Below are positions 30,680 to 44,449 of a stretch of 64,000 nt of DNA, piece by piece. Position numbers and translations under genes: made by a program. This DNA comes from an uncultured Flammeovirgaceae bacterium (GTDB lineage Bacteria > Bacteroidota > Bacteroidia > Cytophagales > Cyclobacteriaceae), in contig CAKZYJ010000469.1 in assembly GCA_937884755.1 (NCBI GenBank), positions 7,666-71,665 on the forward strand, written 5' to 3'. Position 1 is the first letter of the stretch, and the number at the start of each line of letters is the position of its first letter. The notes below the pieces were generated by a model that saw nothing but the letters and a program-made list of their open reading frames with translations, did not search any database and was not told the origin of the DNA.

Positions 30680-31157
30680 AAGTACGGGGGTTTAGAAGGT
30701 TCATTAATTTTTCTTTGATGCGGTGTAGTTTCACTCCTACTTGGCTGACAGATATGCCTAGCATATCCGCAATTTCTTCGTAACGATAGTCGTCCAAGTA
30801 CAGCGTAATAATTGCCTTATCGGCTTCGCTCAGAGTAGCTATAGCCCGGTACAAACGCTCGCGTTCAGGGTGTTCCGGAGTTTCCGTTGCATTAGTTTCT
30901 GTAGAGGCAATAGGCTCAGTAATAATCTGTCTCTTACGGTATCTGGTGAGTGCTGTATTTAAAGCTACTCTATAAATCCAAGTTGTTATTTTCGCTTGCT
31001 TCTGATAAGTAGGATACGACTTCCATAGCTGATAAATCATCTCCTGAAAGAGGTCTTCCCGATCTTCGGGCGTATCCCGATAGATCCGACATATTTTATG
31101 CAGGATGTTCTGGTTCGCTAGAATGATGGAGGTAAACTCTTCTTTCAGTGAAGTCAT
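30666..31157 (-). CDS. ECF RNA polymerase sigma factor
   Basis: Motifs EDLFQE, TWIYRVALNTA and EEIADMLGISVSQVGVKLHRIK. Confidence 0.93.
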   Translation of the reverse strand: MTSLKEEFTSIILANQNILHKICRIYRDTPEDREDLFQEMIYQLWKSYPTYQKQAKITTWIYRVALNTALTRYRKRQIITEPIASTETNATETPEHPERERLYRAIATLSEADKAIITLYLDDYRYEEIADMLGISVSQVGVKLHRIKEKLMNLLNPRTYDTG

Positions 31158-33088: not shown

Positions 33089-33601
33089 ATGCAGCAAAAG
33101 CAGAAATTTCATAGGTTTCTTAATGAGCATACTGCCGTCATCCGGAAAGTATGTCGACTGTATACCGATAACCAAACCGATTTCCACGATTATTTTCAGG
33201 AGGTGGTACTTCAGCTCTGGCGTTCGTTCGGCTCGTTCCGGGGCGAATCCAAAGCTTCTACCTGGGTGTATCGCGTAGCGTTGAACGTATGCCTATCGCA
33301 ATTAAAGCTAAGGAAGCGACGGGTAGTAGCTACTACCATAGACCCAGAAGCCGCCCAACGCTGGGCCGACGAACCCTACGATACTACTGAAGAAGAGCAG
33401 CTTAAACAATTGTACACAGCTATCCGCCAACTGAAAGAAATAGATCGGGCGATTATTCTGCTGTATCTGGAAGAGCGAAGCTACGATGAGATGGCGGACA
33501 TTCTGGGAATAAGCCAGAGTAATGTAGGGGTACGTATCAATCGAATTAAAAAACAATTAAATAAACTGATTCATGGAAGAGCTACAAGCGCTGTGGCGTA
33601 A
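33089..33601 (+). CDS. ECF RNA polymerase sigma factor
   Basis: Motifs DYFQEVVLQLW, STWVYRVALN and EMADILGISQSNVGVRINRIK. Confidence 0.93.
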   Translation: MQQKQKFHRFLNEHTAVIRKVCRLYTDNQTDFHDYFQEVVLQLWRSFGSFRGESKASTWVYRVALNVCLSQLKLRKRRVVATTIDPEAAQRWADEPYDTTEEEQLKQLYTAIRQLKEIDRAIILLYLEERSYDEMADILGISQSNVGVRINRIKKQLNKLIHGRATSAVA

Positions 33602-34163
33602 CGCATCCGTTAGCGAAGAACGTCCGGTAAGCCCACAAGAGCTCGATGCTATGGTAAATCATCGCTCTTCGGACGAGTTGCAGAAATTTCGGCAGGTGAT
33701 TATGCTGGAATACGCTTTTACCTGGGTAATTATTCCGTTACTGATTGTCGGCGCCATCTGGCGTCCTCAGTATCTGGTGGCTGCTATTCCTTTAGTGGCA
33801 CTGATGGGCTATTTGCTGTACTTCTACCGACGTACGCTGAAGCAGTTTGATCAGATTCACGTGGCGGATGATCTACAAACTTATCTACAACGGGCACTTA
33901 CCTTTTTAAAAGCCTACGTACGCCACTACAAGATTGTCTGCTGGGCCAGCGGTGCGGTAGGTTTTGTCACTGGCTACCTGATGGGACTGGAAGAAGAAGA
34001 TGAAGGAGGTATGTTAATAGAGTCTTCTCCAATCTGGGATTTGGCCCTGGTGGCTGGCAGTATTATGCTAGTACTCCTCTTCTGCCACTTCTACATCAAG
34101 CATCTCTATCAAGCTCGTATCAACAACCTGGAAAAACTGCTAGGTGAATTCTCGGAAGCCTAG
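33573..34163 (+). CDS. 4-TM putative anti-sigma factor
   Basis: Begins MEELQALW, has four hydrophobic helices, and overlaps the sigma stop. Confidence 0.7.
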   Translation: MEELQALWRNASVSEERPVSPQELDAMVNHRSSDELQKFRQVIMLEYAFTWVIIPLLIVGAIWRPQYLVAAIPLVALMGYLLYFYRRTLKQFDQIHVADDLQTYLQRALTFLKAYVRHYKIVCWASGAVGFVTGYLMGLEEEDEGGMLIESSPIWDLALVAGSIMLVLLFCHFYIKHLYQARINNLEKLLGEFSEA

Positions 34164-34173
34164 GTCTTAAGCA

Positions 34174-34725
34174 ATGAAAGATTTATCTGTACCCATGAAC
34201 CGTATGCATTTATCCATGCTGCCGTTTATTTTTGCCAGTGGTCTGCTAGTGGTTATCTACGGACTACTCTGGGGTTGGAACGCAGTGTTTGAAGGGTTTG
34301 ATACCTTTCTGGATTTCAGAAACTTCGTTCCAACATTTATTCTGGGAGTGATTGCCCATGAAGGGCTGCACGGTGCTGGTTGGAAGTATGCTGCCAACCT
34401 GAAGTGGTCGGATTTTACTTACGGAGTGCAATGGAATACCCTCACTCCCTACGCCCATAGTAAAAAGCCAATGCGAAAATCAACTTACTTAGTAGGCTCG
34501 CTGCTACCCGCTATTGTACTTGGCATTATCCCTTACCTGATTGCGCTGATTATTGGCCATCACTGGTTGATGATGTTTGGCTTCGTATTCACGCTGGCTG
34601 CCGGAGGCGACTTCTGGATTGTGTATACCTTACGTCATACTCCAGCTGATGCCTGGGTGCAGGATCATCCGGAAAACGCCGGTTGCATCGTATATGATGT
34701 TGAGGAAAAGAAGAACTACTTATAG
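34174..34725 (+). CDS. DUF3267 putative membrane zinc peptidase
   Basis: HEGLHG (HExxH) inside a hydrophobic segment; motifs PYAH, LLPAIVLG and AGGD. Confidence 0.8.
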   Translation: MKDLSVPMNRMHLSMLPFIFASGLLVVIYGLLWGWNAVFEGFDTFLDFRNFVPTFILGVIAHEGLHGAGWKYAANLKWSDFTYGVQWNTLTPYAHSKKPMRKSTYLVGSLLPAIVLGIIPYLIALIIGHHWLMMFGFVFTLAAGGDFWIVYTLRHTPADAWVQDHPENAGCIVYDVEEKKNYL

Positions 34726-35814: not shown

Positions 35815-35954
35815 AAGTAAAAAATTTCTTTTGGCTGGTTCAAATCCACAAAATTACTGCTGGAAATTCCGATTAATTACACATTGCAGTGTAAATATTA
35901 CATACGTCGTATTTTCTTATTTTTACAGTCATATCCAGTGACAATTTTGCCTTC

Positions 35955-36917
35955 ATGAACCGTATTGACCGCCTCGCCGCCATTCTTATTCAACTGCAGA
36001 GCCAGCGTATAACGCGAGCGCAAGACATTGCCGACCGTTTTGATATCAGCCTACGAACAGTGTACCGTGATATTCGGGCATTGGAGGAGGCGGGTGTACC
36101 GATAGGTTCCGAAGCTGGAGTAGGCTACTTTTTGGCGGGTGGCTACCGCCTTCCCCCGGTTCACTTCACGCCCGAAGAAGCTCGCTCACTACTGGTAGCC
36201 GGAAAATTCGTGGACCGGCTTACCGATGCATCCGTTCAAAAGCAGCACGAGGGTGCGTTGTACAAAATCAAAGCCGTGCTGAAGGAAGAGCACCAGGAGA
36301 TGTTGGATGACCTGGAGAACAAAGTAGCGGTGCTTAATCCACCTAGCCAAAACCAGGAACCAGCCGAACTACACCTGGAGAAAATTCAACAAGCCTTATT
36401 AGCACGCAGGGTAGTGGAAATGGACTACTTCTCACCCGGTAGTGGGCAGTTTACCCGACGAGGCATTGAACCCATCGGTATGGTATATTACGGAGATGCC
36501 TGGCACATCATCGCTTACTGCCAACTACGGCAGGACTACCGCGACTTCCGCCTCGACCGCATGAGTAAGTTAGAAGTAACTTCCCAGCGCTATCATCTAC
36601 GTGACCGCCTCAGCCTGGAACAATACCTAAGTCGGCAGAGTCAAACGACCGATGCAGTGTTGGCAAAAGTCCGCTTTCTGAATTCGGTAGTTCAGTTTAT
36701 TGTGCAAGAACGCTATCGCTACGGATTTATGCGAGAAGAAACTACCGACGAAGGAGTAGAATGTTGGTTCCTGGTCCCCCAAATGGAATACTTCGCTCGC
36801 TGGCTACTGACGTACGGCAGCGGAGTAACCATCATCTCACCGCCTCAACTCCAAGATATGACTCAAACCCTGATTCACGAACTGGTACAGCACTACGGGA
36901 ATAATAATGATGAATGA
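35955..36917 (+). CDS. YafY/WYL-domain transcriptional regulator
   Basis: Winged HTH (SLRTVYRDIRAL, GVGY), WYL domain (WHIIAYC.LR.DYR.FR.DR) and a WCX tail. Confidence 0.93.
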   Translation: MNRIDRLAAILIQLQSQRITRAQDIADRFDISLRTVYRDIRALEEAGVPIGSEAGVGYFLAGGYRLPPVHFTPEEARSLLVAGKFVDRLTDASVQKQHEGALYKIKAVLKEEHQEMLDDLENKVAVLNPPSQNQEPAELHLEKIQQALLARRVVEMDYFSPGSGQFTRRGIEPIGMVYYGDAWHIIAYCQLRQDYRDFRLDRMSKLEVTSQRYHLRDRLSLEQYLSRQSQTTDAVLAKVRFLNSVVQFIVQERYRYGFMREETTDEGVECWFLVPQMEYFARWLLTYGSGVTIISPPQLQDMTQTLIHELVQHYGNNNDE

Positions 36918-36988
36918 GTAATGACTGATGATGAATACCAGGGACGTAGCCACTCATTAACCATTACTCGTTACAAAAAGAACCCTAC

Positions 36989-37004
36989 TGACATAGGGCT
37001 GTCA
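36989..37004. promoter_or_regulatory. TGACA-N6-TGTCA palindrome, candidate WYL operator
   Basis: Perfect inverted repeat about 50 bp upstream of the VOC gene. Confidence 0.55.
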
Positions 37005-37054
37005 CTCCGGGCTACGACCTTAGGGCTATTGTTTCACTAAACCCATTAATCACT

Positions 37055-37426
37055 ATGATGTATCCTGGATTTAACACCGAAAAATTGGCCGAAAGCAAAG
37101 CATTCTACACTCAGCACTTTGGCTTTGAAGTAATCTTCGAGGACAGTTGGTTTGTACTACTGAAACGAGGCGACTACGAACTGGGCTTTATGCAACCTGG
37201 ATTACCGCAACAGAACCCGCTATTTCAACCGGCCTTCGGTGGCGGTAGCTGGCTAGCTTTTGAAACTGACGATGCTCATCGTGAATACGAACGCTTACAG
37301 CAGGCAGGAGTACCGATTGTTGCCGAAATTAAAGATGAGAGTTGGGGCGACCGCCATTTCGTAGTCAAAGACCCAAACGGCATTGGAGTAGACATCTACC
37401 AGCGCATTGAAGTAGCAGCGAGCTAA
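37055..37426 (+). CDS. VOC/glyoxalase/bleomycin-resistance family protein
   Basis: Motifs SKAFY...FGF and E.WG.RHF.V.DPNG. Confidence 0.9.
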   Translation: MMYPGFNTEKLAESKAFYTQHFGFEVIFEDSWFVLLKRGDYELGFMQPGLPQQNPLFQPAFGGGSWLAFETDDAHREYERLQQAGVPIVAEIKDESWGDRHFVVKDPNGIGVDIYQRIEVAAS

Positions 37427-37438
37427 AATTGGAAAGGT

Positions 37439-37474
37439 AATGGAGCGAGAGCAACTCTCGCTCCATTCTTCTTT
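37439..37474 (+). terminator. intrinsic terminator
   Basis: 13-bp perfect stem AATGGAGCGAGAG-caa-CTCTCGCTCCATT followed by CTTCTTT. Confidence 0.8.
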
Positions 37475-37524
37475 AATGTAGAGTCTGATAGTGGTTGGTA
37501 TTCCGACAGTAAACGGACGGAGAT

Positions 37525-37829
37525 AGGATACCGCGCCCGACGATCGGTGACTCGGCGTTAAGCTTTTTGTAGCGGATGTAGATTCTGTGGTGTAGTATCA
37601 AAATCTAAATCAAACCGGTACCTGCCGTAGTGACAGTGACCGCGTTATTAATTTACTCATGCCGAGCTAGGGAAAGGTGCATCAGATCATCTTCGTTTAC
37701 TTTATATCCCTCTTTGACAAGATTATCAATGACAGCCAGCATTTACACCGTGTTCCTAACGATAACAGCGTTGGCGAGTAGATTAATACATCCAGCCTGA
37801 TACTGTTGGGCTTCTTCTTGCTTCTGACG
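37525..37829 (-). mobile_element. decayed Tn3-family transposon end: C-terminal tnpA fragment plus degenerate 38-bp terminal repeat
   Basis: The minus strand reads RQKQEEAQQYQAGCINLLANAVIVRNTV*MLAVIDNLVKEGYKVNEDDLMHLSLARHE*IN/(frameshift)YGRYRFDLDFDTTPQNLHPLQKA*. Its TAA (37558-37560) overlaps the CGTTAAG end of a 38-bp tract at 37525-37562. Confidence 0.8.
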
Positions 37830-37846
37830 ATTTTTTTTCTTTGTAA

Positions 37847-37878
37847 GTTACCTTTTCTTTCGTGTGAAGACTATTGGG
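37847..37878 (+). promoter_or_regulatory. candidate ECF promoter of the sigma fusion gene
   Basis: GTTACCTTTT-N-GACT-ATTGGG about 25 bp upstream of the ATG. Confidence 0.3.
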
Positions 37879-37899
37879 TTAATGATAACGATGTAGGAA

Positions 37900-40800
37900 A
37901 TGAAAACCGAAAAACAAAAAGCATTCATGGTGGCCTATGAACTGTGTCATACGGAGTTTTTGCGTTACTGTTCTGTAGTAAGCTACGGAAGGATGGATAG
38001 GGAGGACTTAGTGCAAGATGTAGTGTACTCCGCTTATCGGAACTTCCATAAAATCAGGAATAAGGAAGACTTATTACATTACTTAATAAGAGCAGCTAGA
38101 AACCGAGTAATCACGGAAAGAAGAAAACGGATTAGGAACGTTCAATGGTCTGAGTCGCGCGCTCATCAATTACTGTCAAAAAATGTTTCCGCAGAAACGT
38201 TACTGGATATCCAATTCCTGTACGATGCCCTACGCTCACTTCCTGAAATTCAGGCAACATCGCTCGTACTTTTTGAAGTTCACGGATTTAAGATGAGAGA
38301 GATCGCTTCTATAATGAATTCAACAGAAGCATCAGTTAAAATGCAGGTAAGTAGAGCTAGAAAAAAACTTCGTTCCATCCTGTCCCAAGATCAAACCGAT
38401 AGAAAGAAACAACGAACAATTCCCCCATTCCTGATCGGGGTAGACAAAAGCTCAAAAGTTGGCTTGGAAGATACTTGGTGCGAAGTATTGAAAAATGTGC
38501 CGCCAGCATACGACGTAAACAACACCATAGATACTCTCGCCCATCTTGAAAAAAAGACTACTACTCACTATTTCCTAGCGAATAATCTACCCTACTACAT
38601 GTCAGTAGCAGTCAGTATGATTACTATGCTTATCTTGTTGCTACCATTATTTGTAAATAAAACAGGAATAACAACGCCGTCAGTTGCCAGTCAAGAAGGA
38701 GTTGATTTTCCAATTAATTCAGAGTCTCAGTTTCAACCGGGCCAAAAAGAGCTGATGCCGATAGCGGTACTTGGATTAGATCAACAACCTTTAACCGCTG
38801 CCACGGGGGTTATATCCCAGAAAATTCTGAGCAATTCGGTACCTACTAGCTTACCAAGATCACGAAAGGCTTCTTACCCGCAAAGTCAATTGTATTCTTC
38901 TCAGAAGCATTACGGTGAATATACTATTACCGGAAAGTGGAATGTTAAAGAAGGAGATAACACTAGTTGTATTCATTTCCATTTTGTCGAATCTGGGAAA
39001 GACTGGAAGACAAAATGGAAGTTTAATGAATGTTTTGAGGATCAGAATCTTGAAGATTTTTTGGATGGGAAAAGTACTATTGCGGTGCTGGAAAGATCGG
39101 CTGGACAATTGGTCCTAAGTACTACCAAAAAATCACATAGGGGCACATTTCGGTTTCGCCCCAATGAATCGTTTAAATCATATTTGGAAGACTTGGGCTT
39201 TGACCCACACGCCCAGCCTACTAAGATAGTCTCCGTTACAGGCTCTCACAAGTATACGGGAGATAGTACGCTCGTGTATAGTAACGCACCTGTAGATGTT
39301 TTATGGTATAAATTTTTTGCTGCGGATATCAACTCGCACTATATTAATTATTTGAGGAGTCATGGTTATTTAAGAAAGGATATAAACCAGCTTTGGGAGC
39401 TCGCCGACCAAGAAGTTAGCATCTCATTTCTTGAGGAAATAGTACCCTATCGAACTCTCACTGTCGACTCCTTACGTCTTGCTGATATTGCTAAGTTGAA
39501 AATGTTAGAAGTGAATCCCTCTCTTTTAAGAACAATCGCTGAATGTAACATTGAGAATTTAACTGTAGAGGATATTATTTCTATACACCAACTACAAATA
39601 CCCTCTTCTTACATAAATAATCTATGTGAGTCGCTTATTGATACCCTAACAGCTGAATACATCATTAGGTCATTTCTAATGACAACCTCTGGAGATCGTA
39701 GCAGAACTAATACTATTTTCGCGAGCAAGAAGAAACAATCTACCAACAGAGCTAATTATAGGAACCAAGTAGTGTTTGAAAATGAAGAACGCCAAGTTAT
39801 ACCTCTTTCATCGTTCAATAAACTCATCCTTCACGGAAATATAAAAGTAGGAATCGCAAAATATGATGTAAACCAGGCTATCGTGTTTGGAGATGAGACT
39901 ACCGCATCCAGGGTAAAGGTCGAACTTAAAGGAAACACCTTAACCATTTCTCCTAAACTAGGATTCAGATCCAAGTTTAAGTATGATGTAATTGTCTCCG
40001 GAGAGAACATTATTGACATGGTTGTTAGAAATGGGGCTAAACCTTTTTCTATTGACATGCCCAAGAATACAGTAGATACACTCTCCTCGTTTATCGAAAG
40101 GAAAATGGCTTCTCAAAATATTGTGGGCTACCAAATTTTAGTTATTGAGCATGGAGAGACTACTTTTCAGTTTAACAGTGGGTTTTTAAAAGATGGTAAC
40201 CCAAATAAAGTCAATGAAAATACTGTATTCATGATTGCCTCCTTAACAAAACCTATTTATGCGCTGGCTGTCATGAAATTAGTAGATAAAGGATTAGTAA
40301 GTCTGGATGATCCTATTAATGATTACCTACCTACCCCTGTTCACAATCCATACTTCCCAGAAGATACTATCACCTTTAGAATGTTATTGGCTCATACCAG
40401 CAGCATCAAAGATAATTGGGAGATACTAGGGAATATATATCATCCCAATTCATCCATTTCAGAAGAGTTGACAATAACAAGGTTTGTAAAAGATTACTTT
40501 TATAAATCAGGAAAGTATTTTAACCCAGAATCTAATTTTCATCAAGAAGCACCAGAATTAATCTGGGACTATTCCAACGCCAGCTACATACTACTAGGTC
40601 ATTTGATTGAAGAGATTACCTCTAAAAAAATGAAAGACTTTTGTCAACAAGAAATTTTCACACCATTAGGCATGAATAATACTTTTTGGTATCTGCACGA
40701 TATTTCCCATGATAATATAAGTTATCCACATAGAATAGAAAACGAAAAAATAATCCCACTTCCCCATTATGGCTATCCGTCGTTTCCAGAGGGACAGATT

Positions 40801-41163
40801 AGAACTTCTGCTAACGACTATGCCAAATTTCTATCCATATTCCTTAATCAAGGAAAGGTCAATGGGACTGAATTTATTTCATCGGATCTTATGGTTGAGT
40901 TTTTCAAAATTCAGTATCCCTCTCTTAATAGTTATCAGGCGATTGCTTGGAACAATAATGAATTTGGAAGTGAAGACTTCTACCAACAAGTTCCACATCT
41001 TCCGGCTCATACTGGCCTTGAAGCCGGTATCACGACTGCCACCTTGTTTGATCCTCACAAGAAAGCGGCCGTGATCATTTTTAACAACACACAGCCTGAC
41101 AACTTTAAGGGTCTCTTAGAGATAATGATTGAATTGGCTAAAGCAGTTGGAATGACAAAATAA
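37900..41163 (+). CDS. fusion: ECF sigma factor - TM - M56-associated-like repeats - GIN (DUF2807) - serine hydrolase/beta-lactamase domain
   Basis: Sigma2 EDLVQD; sigma4 MREIASIMNS...VKMQVSRARKKL; TM about aa 232-252; GIN-like PLSSFNKLILHGNIKV; catalytic motifs SLTK, YSN and HTG. One uninterrupted, AT-rich frame. Confidence 0.8.
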   Translation: MKTEKQKAFMVAYELCHTEFLRYCSVVSYGRMDREDLVQDVVYSAYRNFHKIRNKEDLLHYLIRAARNRVITERRKRIRNVQWSESRAHQLLSKNVSAETLLDIQFLYDALRSLPEIQATSLVLFEVHGFKMREIASIMNSTEASVKMQVSRARKKLRSILSQDQTDRKKQRTIPPFLIGVDKSSKVGLEDTWCEVLKNVPPAYDVNNTIDTLAHLEKKTTTHYFLANNLPYYMSVAVSMITMLILLLPLFVNKTGITTPSVASQEGVDFPINSESQFQPGQKELMPIAVLGLDQQPLTAATGVISQKILSNSVPTSLPRSRKASYPQSQLYSSQKHYGEYTITGKWNVKEGDNTSCIHFHFVESGKDWKTKWKFNECFEDQNLEDFLDGKSTIAVLERSAGQLVLSTTKKSHRGTFRFRPNESFKSYLEDLGFDPHAQPTKIVSVTGSHKYTGDSTLVYSNAPVDVLWYKFFAADINSHYINYLRSHGYLRKDINQLWELADQEVSISFLEEIVPYRTLTVDSLRLADIAKLKMLEVNPSLLRTIAECNIENLTVEDIISIHQLQIPSSYINNLCESLIDTLTAEYIIRSFLMTTSGDRSRTNTIFASKKKQSTNRANYRNQVVFENEERQVIPLSSFNKLILHGNIKVGIAKYDVNQAIVFGDETTASRVKVELKGNTLTISPKLGFRSKFKYDVIVSGENIIDMVVRNGAKPFSIDMPKNTVDTLSSFIERKMASQNIVGYQILVIEHGETTFQFNSGFLKDGNPNKVNENTVFMIASLTKPIYALAVMKLVDKGLVSLDDPINDYLPTPVHNPYFPEDTITFRMLLAHTSSIKDNWEILGNIYHPNSSISEELTITRFVKDYFYKSGKYFNPESNFHQEAPELIWDYSNASYILLGHLIEEITSKKMKDFCQQEIFTPLGMNNTFWYLHDISHDNISYPHRIENEKIIPLPHYGYPSFPEGQIRTSANDYAKFLSIFLNQGKVNGTEFISSDLMVEFFKIQYPSLNSYQAIAWNNNEFGSEDFYQQVPHLPAHTGLEAGITTATLFDPHKKAAVIIFNNTQPDNFKGLLEIMIELAKAVGMTK

Positions 41164-41224
41164 TAATCGCTATGCAAGTGATGTAGGAGCTAAACTTAAT
41201 GAGAACTAAACTTTCATACCTAGT

Positions 41225-41460
41225 GCTTTCAGATTTAGTGTTCCGGTTGAAGAGGAAGTATCAAAGCCTTAAGGCTCATCGCTCGTGCCGTGCCCACGGT
41301 GAATTCTCTACCGGGACGATCCGATTCTGTCCGTTTGCTACTGGAAAACCTAGTTTACAGTTCCCTTCCGTTCAGATCGTCTTTCAGCTTATGGCGGTTT
41401 TTTGCCGACCGAGCATTTCAAAGTAGAGTTCCTGCACAGTTACTATCACTACTAACAGTA
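41225..41460 (-). other. structured non-coding tract, possibly an orphan IS110-family end (bridge-RNA-like)
   Basis: Short hairpins GGAC..GTCC and CGGT..ACCG, a GGACAG...CCCGGTA motif, and no credible protein. The assignment comes from recalled similarity only. Confidence 0.25.
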
Positions 41461-41534
41461 AGATGAATCTGATCAGAAGGTAAGCAGTTTCTAAGGATGA
41501 GGTTGATCCATGCAGTAGTGAGGTTATGCTCAGG

Positions 41535-41945
41535 TCAATAATCCTCTCCCTGGTAAATCCACATGGCCTGGTTATCACCAGCCGGTTCAAAACCGCATTG
41601 ACGGTAAAAGTTGATCGCCTTTCCATCAGCTACCAGTATCTGCTGGTGAAACCCAGCGTATTTCTCGTGGAAAACTTCCATAATTCTCTTGCCTATACCC
41701 TGCCCCTGGTAATCCGGTAATACCAGCAAATGCGGATAATATACCACCAGATGCCCATCGGTGATTGCATTACCTAAGCCTACCAACACGCTCCCGTCCC
41801 ACGCCGATACTAGCGAATCTGAATTCATGAGTGCATTATAGAGGGCATCCGGTTTATGCGCTGAGGACCAATGATTGGCCTCGTACAGCGTCAGAATATC
41901 CTTCTTCTTGATTCCTTTTGTTTCCTTAATAATAATATTGTACAT
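41535..41945 (-). CDS. GNAT family N-acetyltransferase
   Basis: Motifs LLVLPDYQGQGIGK and FYRQCGF. Confidence 0.9.
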   Translation of the reverse strand: MYNIIIKETKGIKKKDILTLYEANHWSSAHKPDALYNALMNSDSLVSAWDGSVLVGLGNAITDGHLVVYYPHLLVLPDYQGQGIGKRIMEVFHEKYAGFHQQILVADGKAINFYRQCGFEPAGDNQAMWIYQGEDY

Positions 41946-42013
41946 GCCCGACTAATCGCCCTTTTGACTAGATAAAACCAGCGTAATATACACAAATTTT
42001 GTCATTAGTGAGG

Positions 42014-43441
42014 TTAGAGTTCAACTAAAACTCCGTTTACTACCGCAAATCGATTCTTGCGTCGCTTTTTCAGGAGAAAGTTAGCCCGTCGTCCCAACAG
42101 TAATTCATGGTTGGGTTCCGCATCTTTAGAAACCACATCCAGCAGCAATTCCGACCGGAGGTGCGGATACTGCTCCAAATCCCGTACTCTTACTGTAGTA
42201 TATCCTTGCTTCAGTAAGCGTTCAGTTTTAAGCTCCACCACATCCTTCAGGGTTTTCTGTACTTTCGGGTATACTTTACCCGGAACGGCCTGTAAACCTT
42301 CGGCATCCAGCTCCTGGTAACCGTAGTAAGTAGACAAATCGCCGATATACTGAATACGGCTTAGTTCGTAAAAGTCCCGGTGCCCTTCCAGATCAATCTC
42401 ATTTTGGTTCACTGCAATATCAATCATGAACTGCCGGCCGTTTTTCTCGCGCTGCACATTTCGGATAATCAAGTCGTAGAGGTAGCGTTCGTTTTCCGGA
42501 ATAGTGAAATATTCTTCTACTGGGGCCTTTCGGTAGTTTCCCTCAGCAATGGCGTGAAGCCCGATCAGCAGCAGCACGAAGTTGACCTTGCGAATTTGCT
42601 GCTTCTCTTTGTCATTTTTATATCCTCCCGATTCGATCAGCACGGTACTAGTACCCCACTTCTGCATATTATCGCCAAAGGCCCTCGGTTCAAAATCATC
42701 GTTGTAGCGGCCTACCTGATTCGGAATAAACGCCTGAATAGCATCATTCAACAGAACAATCAGTTGCAGGGCGCGCTCCCGCACTTCGTTTACTTCTTTT
42801 TCGTAGTTATAAGCCGGAGCCAGCACAGAGATAGTAGCCGGATGAGGACTGACGCCAGTTGTGTAATACGTACTCTGGTCGTGCAGATTAAATCCAAAAT
42901 CAGCCTGCAAACTATCGCGCAGCCGCTTCAGAATCTGCGATTCGGGCGATTGCAGCCGGAGAGCATCCCGGTTCAGGTCAATATCAATAGCATTGTACCG
43001 CTGATACTGCTCGGCTCCGTCAGGGTTGAGCATGGGCACAAAGTGGATATTCAGATTATCTAGCAGTTGTCTACGCAGCGGATCAAGCTCATCGCTTTGA
43101 GCAAAGAAGTTAAACAAATCCAGTCCGGCCATGGTAGCGGTAGGTTCATTACCGTGCATCTGCGACCATAGGAGCACCGTAGTCTCTCCCGTTCCGAAGG
43201 AAACATCGTAAATGGTTCGCCCTTCAATAGAATTTCCTAACGGAGTGACTTTGAAGGTAGAGTTACTTCGTAGTTCCAGTAATAGTGGTTCTACATCACT
43301 GTGTTTAAACCGACGGTCGGTAATGCTAGCCTCCCGGTACCGATCGTGATATTGGTGAGCAGCAGCGGGGACAGATAGAATCTGAGCAGGTAACAAAACG
43401 GGTAGGCCCAATAGAAATAATACGAATAAGGGACATTTCAT
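42014..43441 (-). CDS. M14 family zinc carboxypeptidase
   Basis: Motifs SQMHGNE (HxxE), NPDG, DLNRD, NLHDQ and LIESG. Confidence 0.9.
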   Translation of the reverse strand: MKCPLFVLFLLGLPVLLPAQILSVPAAAHQYHDRYREASITDRRFKHSDVEPLLLELRSNSTFKVTPLGNSIEGRTIYDVSFGTGETTVLLWSQMHGNEPTATMAGLDLFNFFAQSDELDPLRRQLLDNLNIHFVPMLNPDGAEQYQRYNAIDIDLNRDALRLQSPESQILKRLRDSLQADFGFNLHDQSTYYTTGVSPHPATISVLAPAYNYEKEVNEVRERALQLIVLLNDAIQAFIPNQVGRYNDDFEPRAFGDNMQKWGTSTVLIESGGYKNDKEKQQIRKVNFVLLLIGLHAIAEGNYRKAPVEEYFTIPENERYLYDLIIRNVQREKNGRQFMIDIAVNQNEIDLEGHRDFYELSRIQYIGDLSTYYGYQELDAEGLQAVPGKVYPKVQKTLKDVVELKTERLLKQGYTTVRVRDLEQYPHLRSELLLDVVSKDAEPNHELLLGRRANFLLKKRRKNRFAVVNGVLVEL

Positions 43442-43468
43442 GTCAGCAAAATACCCAATTCGCCGAAG

Positions 43469-44449
43469 TTAGGCAGTGGCTAGCTTCTTTTTTTTCTCCG
43501 GAATCAGCCAACGGAGTCCCTTGGCCGCCCCACCAACCAGTCCGATAAATAAGACTACTCCGCCTACATTGAACAGTAAATGAGCGTTAGCAATTTTGCG
43601 CTCTATTTGGGCACTACCCGACATCCGCTCAGCCGCCGCAATAATCCAATCGACACACAACACTCCGATGATGACAGTAGCCACGTTGAACAGTAGGTGA
43701 AAGATACCGGTACGAATAGCAGACCGGTCGCGACCGATAGTGGCAATCAAGGTATCGGCGCAGGTGCCAATTTCCGCACCCAGCATTACGGCTACTCCCG
43801 CCGGAAGGGTCATCATGCCCTGGCTAGCTAGCGTAATTACGATTCCCATCGTAGCCGAAGATGATTGAATGAGTAGGGTGGCCACAGCACCCGCCAGTAC
43901 TCCGAACCAGGGATTCTCTAGGTCTTTCAGTGTTTCCAGAAAGGGCGGATAGCCCCTCAGCGGATTCATTGCCTCTCCCATTAGGCCTAGCGAGAAAAAT
44001 ATAAGACCTAGCGCAAAGATAATTTTTCCGATACTTCTCCAGCGAGCCGAGCGCCCCAGCGATTGAAAAAGTAAGCCTCCCAGTAGCCCAATAGGCGCGT
44101 ATTCATCAACATCAAATGCAATTAATTGGCTGGAAAGGGTGGTACCAATATTAGAACCCATCACCACCCCCAGCGACTCTACGAAGGTCATTAGCCCCGC
44201 GTTTACTAGTGCAATTACCATGATGACGGTTACCGAAGAAGAACCCACAACGGCAGTAGCCGCCGTCCCGGTTAGCACTCCCGTGAAGCGATTAGTGGTG
44301 AAACGGGCCAGCCAGAACCGAATTTTATCATTAGCGATGGCCTTTACTGCCTCGGATAATTGGGTTACAGCAAAGATAAATAGAACCAAGCCGGCCATCA
44401 GTCCCATCATCATTGAGAACCAATCCAGTGAAGCTTCAGGAGATGTCAT
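43469..44449 (-). CDS. Na/Pi cotransporter (PNaS) family protein
   Basis: Repeated SSS.T / QSSSAT and GSNIGTT / GAEIGT motifs; AH..FN. Confidence 0.88.
   Translation of the reverse strand: MTSPEASLDWFSMMMGLMAGLVLFIFAVTQLSEAVKAIANDKIRFWLARFTTNRFTGVLTGTAATAVVGSSSVTVIMVIALVNAGLMTFVESLGVVMGSNIGTTLSSQLIAFDVDEYAPIGLLGGLLFQSLGRSARWRSIGKIIFALGLIFFSLGLMGEAMNPLRGYPPFLETLKDLENPWFGVLAGAVATLLIQSSSATMGIVITLASQGMMTLPAGVAVMLGAEIGTCADTLIATIGRDRSAIRTGIFHLLFNVATVIIGVLCVDWIIAAAERMSGSAQIERKIANAHLLFNVGGVVLFIGLVGGAAKGLRWLIPEKKKKLATA

Follow-up and report, generated by a model that had tools for sequence, protein, structure and literature searches.

Domain organization of the fused gene

The gene analysed here lies in a stretch of 64,000 nucleotides (the window) of DNA from an uncultured Flammeovirgaceae bacterium (assembly GCA_937884755.1, contig CAKZYJ010000469.1, positions 7,666 to 71,665 of the forward strand). 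According to the list of open reading frames in the window and their translations, it is one intact open frame on the plus strand (37900..41163) encoding 1087 residues, in which a sigma factor of the extracytoplasmic function (ECF) type, a membrane-spanning anti-sigma-like part and a serine hydrolase are joined in a single chain. The comparison with homologues described below indicates that the gene arose once, and long ago, through the fusion of three operon genes for an ECF sigma factor, a single-pass anti-sigma factor and a secreted hydrolase of the PF00144 family. In the window protein, Pfam matches Sigma70_r2 (PF04542) at residues 31-77 and Sigma70_r4_2 (PF08281) at residues 107-157 (E = 6e-12), and in the C-terminal part DUF2807 (PF10988) at residues 639-713 (E = 2.5e-6) and PF00144 at residues 730-1070 (E = 2e-46). 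The original prediction, made from the letters of the DNA, had proposed such a 1087-residue frame beginning with an ECF sigma factor, and the reading frame, Pfam and the NCBIfam model TIGR02937 (sigma70-ECF; 55 bits against a cut-off of 42.9) agree with it. Its observation that the gene is AT-rich also holds: the G+C content is 38.3% (0.36 at third codon positions, GC3), compared to 45.8% and 47.8% in the two flanks (GC3 0.50-0.54) and 44.5% in the genome.

Two full-length alleles from other assemblies, P0002 and P0269, differ from the window protein by one or two residues, and one allele sits in an independently assembled metagenome contig, in which the gene has the same neighbours as here. 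Two half proteins in the collection, covering residues 1-531 and 533-1087, show 1 and 5 differences, respectively. Because residue 532 is missing and a start codon is absent in the halves, they suggest a gene that was probably split across two contigs. An internal start yielding a separate secreted hydrolase was considered and rejected, as no signal peptide follows Met-722 or Met-735.

The sigma domain (residues 1-165; 37900..38394, plus strand) is composed of sigma2 and sigma4 only, without sigma3 or sigma1.1; since neither Pfam nor NCBIfam finds other sigma regions, it falls into the ECF class (group 4). The named ECF groups of NCBIfam are not reached (NF058625, 61 versus 130 bits; TIGR02985, 59 versus 126 bits). 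The identity to more than 100 stand-alone sigma factors is 41-60%, and to those of the split operons described below 49-54%. For structural analysis we used two AlphaFold2 runs, one of the middle region (12 sequences, mean predicted local distance difference test score, pLDDT, of 68) and one of the full-length protein (94 rows, mean pLDDT 72.9), the alignment for the latter excluding the rows of anti-sigma fragments. An earlier full-length alignment of 102 rows that included these fragments was misaligned beyond residue ~407 and was discarded. Sigma2 (residues 1-100) is predicted with moderate confidence (pLDDT 51-77) and sigma4 (residues 110-160) with high confidence (pLDDT >90).

The sigma domain is followed by a fusion linker (residues 166-188) and a short cytoplasmic anti-sigma-like segment (residues 189-229), which together occupy 38395..38586 (plus strand). 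The segment, which the original prediction had described as helical and anti-sigma-like, aligns with the ~45-residue cytoplasmic N-terminus of separate, translationally coupled anti-sigma factors, with Pro-201 nearly invariant. FecR-type (ECF243) and zinc-finger (ZAS; ECF52/53/48) anti-sigma domains were not found in residues 165-730 of four family members. A single transmembrane helix at residues 230-252 (38587..38655, plus strand; Kyte-Doolittle maximum 2.47) is the only candidate for a membrane span, its position is conserved in four full-length homologues, and in the AlphaFold2 model it belongs to a longer predicted helix comprising residues 206-246. The juxtamembrane linker that follows (residues 253-335; 38656..38904, plus strand) is disordered in both models (pLDDT <35), as well as gappy and unconserved in the alignment, and represents a candidate region for site-1 cleavage. 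A signal-peptidase-like sequence after the helix (S-V-A|S) was considered as the site-1 cut and dropped, since it is absent in the homologues.

The signal peptide found on the stand-alone hydrolase orthologue sets the predicted topology as N-in/C-out, with a cytoplasmic sigma domain and a periplasmic C-terminal part. The membrane-tethered sigma factor in one polypeptide that had been envisaged earlier is upheld.

The hydrolase domain

The C-terminal domain (residues 730-1087; 40087..41160, plus strand) is a periplasmic hydrolase of PF00144, the family of R61-like DD-peptidases, whose serine hydrolases correspond to family S12 of MEROPS. It contains the motifs SLTK (Ser-781 to Lys-784; 40240-40251), YSN (Tyr-891 to Asn-893; 40570-40578) and HTG (His-1037 to Gly-1039; 41008-41016), all on the plus strand. 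These are the motifs by which a serine hydrolase had been recognized in the original prediction, and they are invariant across five aligned family members; the SxTK/YSN/HTG triad is that of the R61 DD-peptidase. The domain is modelled with a pLDDT of >90, and a Foldseek search with the model returns PDB-code 4gdn (template modelling score, TM, 0.84) and the R61 DD-peptidase (PDB-code: 1ikg; TM 0.80); its matches, which are also obtained by sequence, include the FmtA-like protein Flp, Pab87, LACTB, ClbP, alkaline D-peptidase, D-amino-acid amidase and family VIII esterases. The identity to P0160, a stand-alone orthologue that is secreted, amounts to 51%. The equivalog models of NCBIfam for class C beta-lactamase (49.9 versus 415 bits), AmpH (56.4 versus 266 bits) and PBP4B (40.9 versus 385 bits) are not reached.

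The periplasmic module between membrane and hydrolase

Between the juxtamembrane linker and the hydrolase, the AlphaFold2 models and Pfam support the beta domain, repeats and DUF2807-like segment that had been read from the translated sequence. The periplasmic beta-sheet domain spans residues 336-460 (38905..39279, plus strand); its sheet is modelled at residues 343-431, with strands at residues 343-421 reaching pLDDT 78-94 in the model of the middle region. Four helical-hairpin repeats of ~30 residues follow at residues 463-608 (39286..39723, plus strand), the helices of which (residues 466-608) mostly reach pLDDT 85-93. The third element is half of a DUF2807/Toastrack beta-helix (residues 631-717; 39790..40050, plus strand). 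The Pfam match covers only positions 2-75 of the 181 positions of the DUF2807 profile, and the split anti-sigma factors carry the same half domain. With the beta-helix, Foldseek finds 7muc_AM, 3pet and 3lyc (DUF2807, “putative adhesin”) with ~90 residues superposed, and a profile match to 7muc is also obtained in the PDB (E = 3.8e-5). For the beta-sheet domain and the repeats, Foldseek with the model of the middle region found no solved structural relative, only the DUF2807 part being matched.

A profile search of representative proteins showed that the beta-sheet domain and the repeats recur in several hundred other proteins, the repeats in 4-8 copies. The module (P0021-P0159) has the signature G-x-W...C...W...C-F...REAG in the beta-sheet domain, followed by 2-8 copies of the repeat “IHxVxxxYI...G...L”. 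Among the best 148 of the proteins, local motif searches and phmmer counted at least 66 with the HExxH...WxNP signature of BlaR1-type Peptidase_M56 transducers, and the module forms the C-terminal part of many BlaR1-type M56 proteins of Bacteroidota, which are 700-1000 residues long. The window protein itself has no M56 domain, Pfam giving no PF05569 match, and no HExxH motif. In Bacteroidota, one extracytoplasmic module is thus employed by two types of signal transducer in the membrane. This module is large and apparently undescribed.

Origin from a three-gene operon

The comparison of full-length with split homologues returned both kinds, the full-length ones in other Bacteroidota. P0003, P0004 and P0005 (the last from a metagenome-assembled genome of Croceivirga sp.) are full-length homologues with 45-53% identity and all four Pfam domains. 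Two further proteins, P0006 and P0124 (L018), are cut by contig ends and are fused at least over the junction of anti-sigma part and hydrolase. We searched a profile of the middle region (residues 165-730) against 1.84 billion representative proteins. The best matches after the fused family are stand-alone proteins of 568-661 residues that have neither a sigma nor a hydrolase domain and align from just past the sigma domain through the end of the DUF2807 part.

In all eight split loci (L015, L016, L019 and L098-L102), the gene for this anti-sigma protein comes immediately after an ECF sigma gene, which is 175-184 codons long. The two genes overlap by 4 nt in seven of the loci and by 1 nt in L019, as is classical for a translationally coupled sigma/anti-sigma pair. 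Three of them (L015, L019 and L098) complete the set with a PF00144 gene of 387-395 codons that starts 16-27 nt downstream of the anti-sigma gene. In L015 the sigma factor is 49% identical to residues 1-164 of the window protein and the hydrolase 51% identical to residues 734-1081. The stand-alone hydrolases begin with signal peptides. The other loci are arranged differently: the downstream PF00144 neighbour in L016 is a paralogue with only 25% identity, L099 has a PF00144 paralogue directly upstream of the sigma gene, and the anti-sigma homologues of L100 and L101/L102 are without a PF00144 neighbour. A conserved 401-residue protein with no Pfam domain is encoded 184 nt after the anti-sigma gene in L101 (6098-7303) and L102 (4191-5396), and might be what that sigma factor has for its output instead.

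The hydrolase domains of the fused proteins group in a single clade (support 99/98) of a maximum-likelihood tree; this clade is sister to that of the split-operon enzymes (100/100), and the two together (100/99) are set apart from solitary PF00144 proteins. The fused proteins have diverged to 45-64% identity. Because they are monophyletic and sister to the enzymes of the split operons, the gene descends from a single, old fusion of the operon. The suggestion that the loss of a stop codon could have fused the parts recently is contradicted by this monophyly and divergence.

The fused homologues do not share a conserved genomic context. A tyrosine integrase (L012, 6492-7718) is found directly upstream of the gene for P0004, and a fragment of an IS1 transposase (L016, 3655-3990) upstream of the split operon in L016.

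A conserved promoter

The fused gene is preceded by an ECF-type promoter at 37847..37874 (plus strand), GTTACCTTTTCTTTCGTGTGAAGACTAT, with the -35 element GTTACCTTTT, a 12-nt spacer and the -10 element GACTAT, the end of which lies 25 nt before the ATG. A promoter at 37847-37878 had been marked before, and it coincides with a motif that is conserved in the relatives. GTWACCTTTT-N12-GACTAT precedes 11 of 11 loci, namely four fused genes and seven split operons, in degenerate form in L099, L100 and L101. In most of them it lies 45-75 nt before the start codon, and apart from the motif the upstream DNA of the 11 loci cannot be aligned. Its shape, with an “AAC”-type -35 and a “CGAC/GAC”-type -10 element, is that of an ECF promoter, and we take it as the putative promoter through which this sigma family regulates itself. 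A second copy is located in L099, ~120 nt before the relocated PF00144 gene, and points to its hydrolase as a probable target of the sigma factor. Only one copy of the strict motif is present in the 8.35-Mb genome, ahead of the fused gene, which points to an apparent one-gene regulon.

A decayed transposon carries the gene

The promoter and the fused gene are part of an inserted element of 3,863 bp (37488..41350, no strand assigned), probably a decayed transposon of the Tn3 family. The boundaries are given by the empty site in the closest congener, G004 (L103), in which the window segments 35954-37487 and 41351-43500 are contiguous, meeting between positions 1685 and 1686 of L103. Correspondingly, the distance from a WYL regulator to an M14 peptidase is 1.0-1.3 kb in seven congeners (G001, G003, G004, G008, G012, G013 and G015) and 5.1 kb here. 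The G+C content of the element is 0.391, compared to 0.458 and 0.478 in the flanks.

The left terminal inverted repeat (GGTTGGTATTCCGACAGTAAACGGACGGAGATAGGAT; 37493..37529, plus strand) was obtained by local alignment with the right end, and the right one (reverse complement GGTTTTCCAGTAGCAAACGGACAGAATCGGAT; 41319..41350, minus strand) ends exactly at the insertion boundary. The repeats are imperfect, with ~25 of 33 positions matching between the left end and the reverse complement of the right end. Outside them lies the direct repeat TAGT, a candidate target-site duplication, at 37489..37492 and 41351..41354 (neither with a strand); the empty site in L103 reads TAGGT. The canonical target duplication of Tn3 is 5 bp, whereas the one here is 4 bp exact. 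On the minus strand at 37647..37835, a relic of the C-terminus of a Tn3-family transposase (~63 codons with two in-frame stops) matches PF01526 (DDE_Tnp_Tn3; E = 3.8e-12) at profile positions 322-384 of 389. The transposase relic and the terminal inverted repeats confirm the mobile-element remains that had been noted at the flanks of the gene. Apart from the promoter and the fused gene, nothing functional is contained in the element.

No other copy of the Tn3 transposase, intact or otherwise, was found in the genome, and the flanks are not repeated elsewhere in it. The element ends and the transposase relic were not found beside the homologues, and Rfam gave no match at E up to 1 in window 37000-42100. 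The middle region of the protein is absent from 40 relatives (15 species from the same genus, nine further genera in the family and 16 further families in the order), and among an even sample of 400 Bacteroidota species the whole module occurs only in the window's own genome.

Two observations concern the surroundings of the insertion. The DNA from 41351 onwards is native intergenic sequence with 83% conservation in G004, and a tract at 41225-41460 straddles the insertion boundary. The WYL-domain regulator is intact in the window (35955-36917), while its counterpart in G004 (L103, C13:44495-45486) has an in-frame TAG and is likely a pseudogene.

Proposed mechanism and alternatives

We consider it probable that the gene encodes a self-contained, autoregulated and membrane-tethered sigma factor that is released by regulated proteolysis and whose output is the hydrolase. 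In the resting state, the sigma domain would be held at the inner membrane, where it is probably masked by the ~40-residue segment that follows it. An envelope signal would be read by the periplasmic module of beta-sheet domain and helical repeats, as it is carried by BlaR1-type M56 transducers of Bacteroidota, and would lead to a cut in the disordered juxtamembrane linker and subsequently to intramembrane cleavage by a site-2 protease of the M50 family in the host. M50 site-2 proteases are encoded in the genome. The freed sigma factor would then initiate transcription from its own promoter, and the hydrolase would be an inducible periplasmic enzyme acting on a D-Ala or D-amino-acid peptide, a beta-lactam or an ester. 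We take the hydrolase as the output because all other products of the circuit are regulatory, as far as a genome in which the strict promoter was found just once can show, and because the relocated hydrolase gene in L099 has the same promoter.

Several points weigh against this scheme. Within residues 165-730 of four family members, no Pfam match other than DUF2807 was found at E up to 10, and because no known anti-sigma domain family matches, the inhibitory anti-sigma role is read from gene context alone. In the AlphaFold2 model, the segment after the sigma domain is not docked onto it with confidence (pLDDT <50 for residues 165-235). The one-gene regulon comes from a strict motif search, which degenerate target promoters would escape. 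Moreover, to fuse the output enzyme to the anti-sigma factor is self-defeating if cleavage destroys the periplasmic part, which argues for a role of the enzyme as a sensor.

Could the hydrolase domain be the sensor, an option that the original prediction had put forward? Acylation of Ser-781 by a beta-lactam or D-peptide would then license the site-1 cleavage, and the protein would be the single-chain equivalent of sigmaP-RsiP-PbpP or BlaR1, which we regard as a realistic, if less likely, possibility. The fusion of the hydrolase to the C-terminus of the anti-sigma part predicts a physical interaction by Rosetta-stone logic, and a fused output enzyme would be lost or severed at every activation. 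Furthermore, the SxxK/YxN/HTG motifs are invariant, and the gene order of sigma factor, anti-sigma factor and penicillin-binding protein (PBP) is that of sigP-rsiP-pbpP in B. thuringiensis (PMC8092216). However, the hydrolase of the split operons is a soluble secreted protein expressed from a sigma-dependent promoter, the different PF00144 paralogue upstream of the sigma gene in L099 is preceded by a further copy of that promoter, as expected of a target gene, the neighbour in L016 is the 25% identical paralogue, and the anti-sigma homologues of L100 and L101/L102 do without a PF00144 neighbour altogether. The beta-sheet domain and repeats, being common to M56 transducers, already provide a module of the sensor type. 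A combination of both functions, in which the PF00144 domain is covalent sensor (with a beta-lactam, D-peptide or muropeptide as acylating agent) and induced detoxifying enzyme at once, in a one-chain unit that moves between Bacteroidota on a transposon together with its promoter, is entertained only tentatively and seems rather unlikely.

Returning to the release of a tethered sigma factor, it seems quite unlikely that release never happens and that the sigma domain is either active while tethered or a vestige on a membrane-anchored periplasmic enzyme. It is true that a cleavage site is not identifiable, that a candidate small-x-small site after the transmembrane helix is not conserved in homologues, and that no self-inhibited conformation is seen in the AlphaFold2 model. 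A vestigial domain would be difficult to reconcile with a sigma domain as conserved as the rest of the protein (45-61% identity over fused and split forms) and with a cognate promoter that is conserved before every family member, and the characterized hybrid IutY is freed by Prc and RseP (PMC8999054). It is highly improbable that the fusion is an artefact of assembly or sequencing, that stop codons were lost recently or that the gene is dead cargo in a decayed transposon. The gene does lie in a low-GC insertion with a broken transposase, and separate-gene versions exist, but the same open frame is present in at least three other assemblies with few substitutions, four further lineages are fused at 45-64% identity within a monophyletic clade, and the catalytic motifs, the sigma regions and the promoter are all intact.

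Other sigma genes in the window

Two more ECF sigma genes are present in the window. One at ~33122-33577 overlaps by 4 nt with the gene for a 196-residue membrane protein (33573-34163), which is followed by the gene for a DUF3267 protein (34174-34725); the genes at 33122-34163 are probably a separate sigma/anti-sigma pair. The other is located on the minus strand at ~30681-31097. The segment 59019-64000 has a very low G+C content (0.37-0.38), and the window may hold several foreign segments.

Implications

The existence of split and fused forms provides a natural Rosetta-stone experiment that joins an uncharacterised PF00144 family, an equally uncharacterised anti-sigma family and an unclassified ECF sigma factor in one functional unit. 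With a defined promoter and an apparent one-gene regulon, the orphan enzyme comes with its own reporter system, and the inducer of the promoter at 37847-37874 would be a strong clue to the substrate of the enzyme. In addition, a link is made between the periplasmic module of the anti-sigma factor and the many BlaR1-type M56 transducers of Bacteroidota that have received no study. The whole inducible circuit (promoter, regulator, sensor, enzyme) is able to move as one open reading frame in a small transposon, which bears on the spread of regulated hydrolases of the envelope or antibiotic type, and the use of such a circuit as a compact, orthogonal switch in synthetic biology is attractive. If the hydrolase domain were sensor and enzyme at the same time, the protein would be the first counterpart in one polypeptide to the circuits of sigmaP-RsiP-PbpP or BlaR1-BlaI-BlaZ, and the module of beta-sheet domain and repeats would be a general receiver of envelope signals.

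Comparison with known systems

The original prediction knew of no described ECF group with this architecture. This has to be qualified, as hybrids of sigma and anti-sigma factor are known in IutY (ECF243) of Pseudomonas putida, whose sigma factor is freed by Prc and then RseP, and in SCO4117 (ECF52) of Streptomyces coelicolor, both of which are precedents for proteolytic release (PMC8999054); ECF groups with C-terminal extensions are further precedents (PMC7826278). The particular set of domains stands as undescribed: no description of the fusion of sigma factor, anti-sigma factor and PF00144 hydrolase, or of its split operon, was found in the searchable literature. Like IutY and SCO4117, the window protein combines an N-terminal ECF sigma factor, a membrane span and an extracytoplasmic C-terminal part in one chain. 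Unlike them, it comes from Bacteroidota, lacks a FecR-like or zinc-finger domain, has other periplasmic domains and adds as a third part a complete enzyme that is a separate gene of the operon in relatives. It would work like a sigma/anti-sigma hybrid, and the lack of a FecR or zinc-finger anti-sigma domain sets it outside ECF243 and ECF52.

In B. thuringiensis, a PBP encoded beside sigP-rsiP senses beta-lactams and controls the site-1 cleavage of the anti-sigma factor (PMC8092216). The sigmaP-RsiP-PbpP system has in common with ours an ECF sigma factor, a single-pass anti-sigma factor and a penicillin-recognizing serine protein in that order, and its sigma factor is autoregulated, the system controlling hydrolases of the beta-lactamase kind. 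It differs in consisting of three proteins in a Gram-positive organism, and PbpP is a 66-kDa PBP of the transpeptidase type encoded outside the sigP-rsiP operon (PMC8092216); the likeness considered here is that of gene order and description. As regards BlaR1/MecR1 and the M56 proteins of Bacteroidota, the beta-sheet domain and ~30-residue repeats of the window protein are homologous to the extracytoplasmic part of many of these M56 proteins. The overall logic, in which a hydrolase gene is switched on by way of a membrane sensor and proteolysis, is also common to both, as a proposal in our case. On the other hand, lacking an M56 domain and an HExxH motif, the window protein is not a BlaR1; its output would be a sigma factor rather than the cleavage of a BlaI-type repressor, and its penicillin-recognizing domain belongs to PF00144 and is not the class-D-like sensor domain of BlaR1.

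Compared to other PF00144 enzymes (R61, Flp, Pab87, ClbP, LACTB, AmpH, family VIII esterases and class C beta-lactamases), the hydrolase domain is distinguished by its covalent attachment to a signalling protein. The beta-helix C-terminal to a membrane anchor and its link to a sigma factor recall the envelope-stress proteins of the Toastrack type (DUF2807/DUF4097/DUF2154), although only half of the domain is present here and it would be periplasmic, whereas an intracellular location is argued for Toastrack proteins (PMC11237479). What is special about the window protein is its origin from three genes, the module shared with M56 transducers, the apparent one-gene regulon and its carriage by a transposon.

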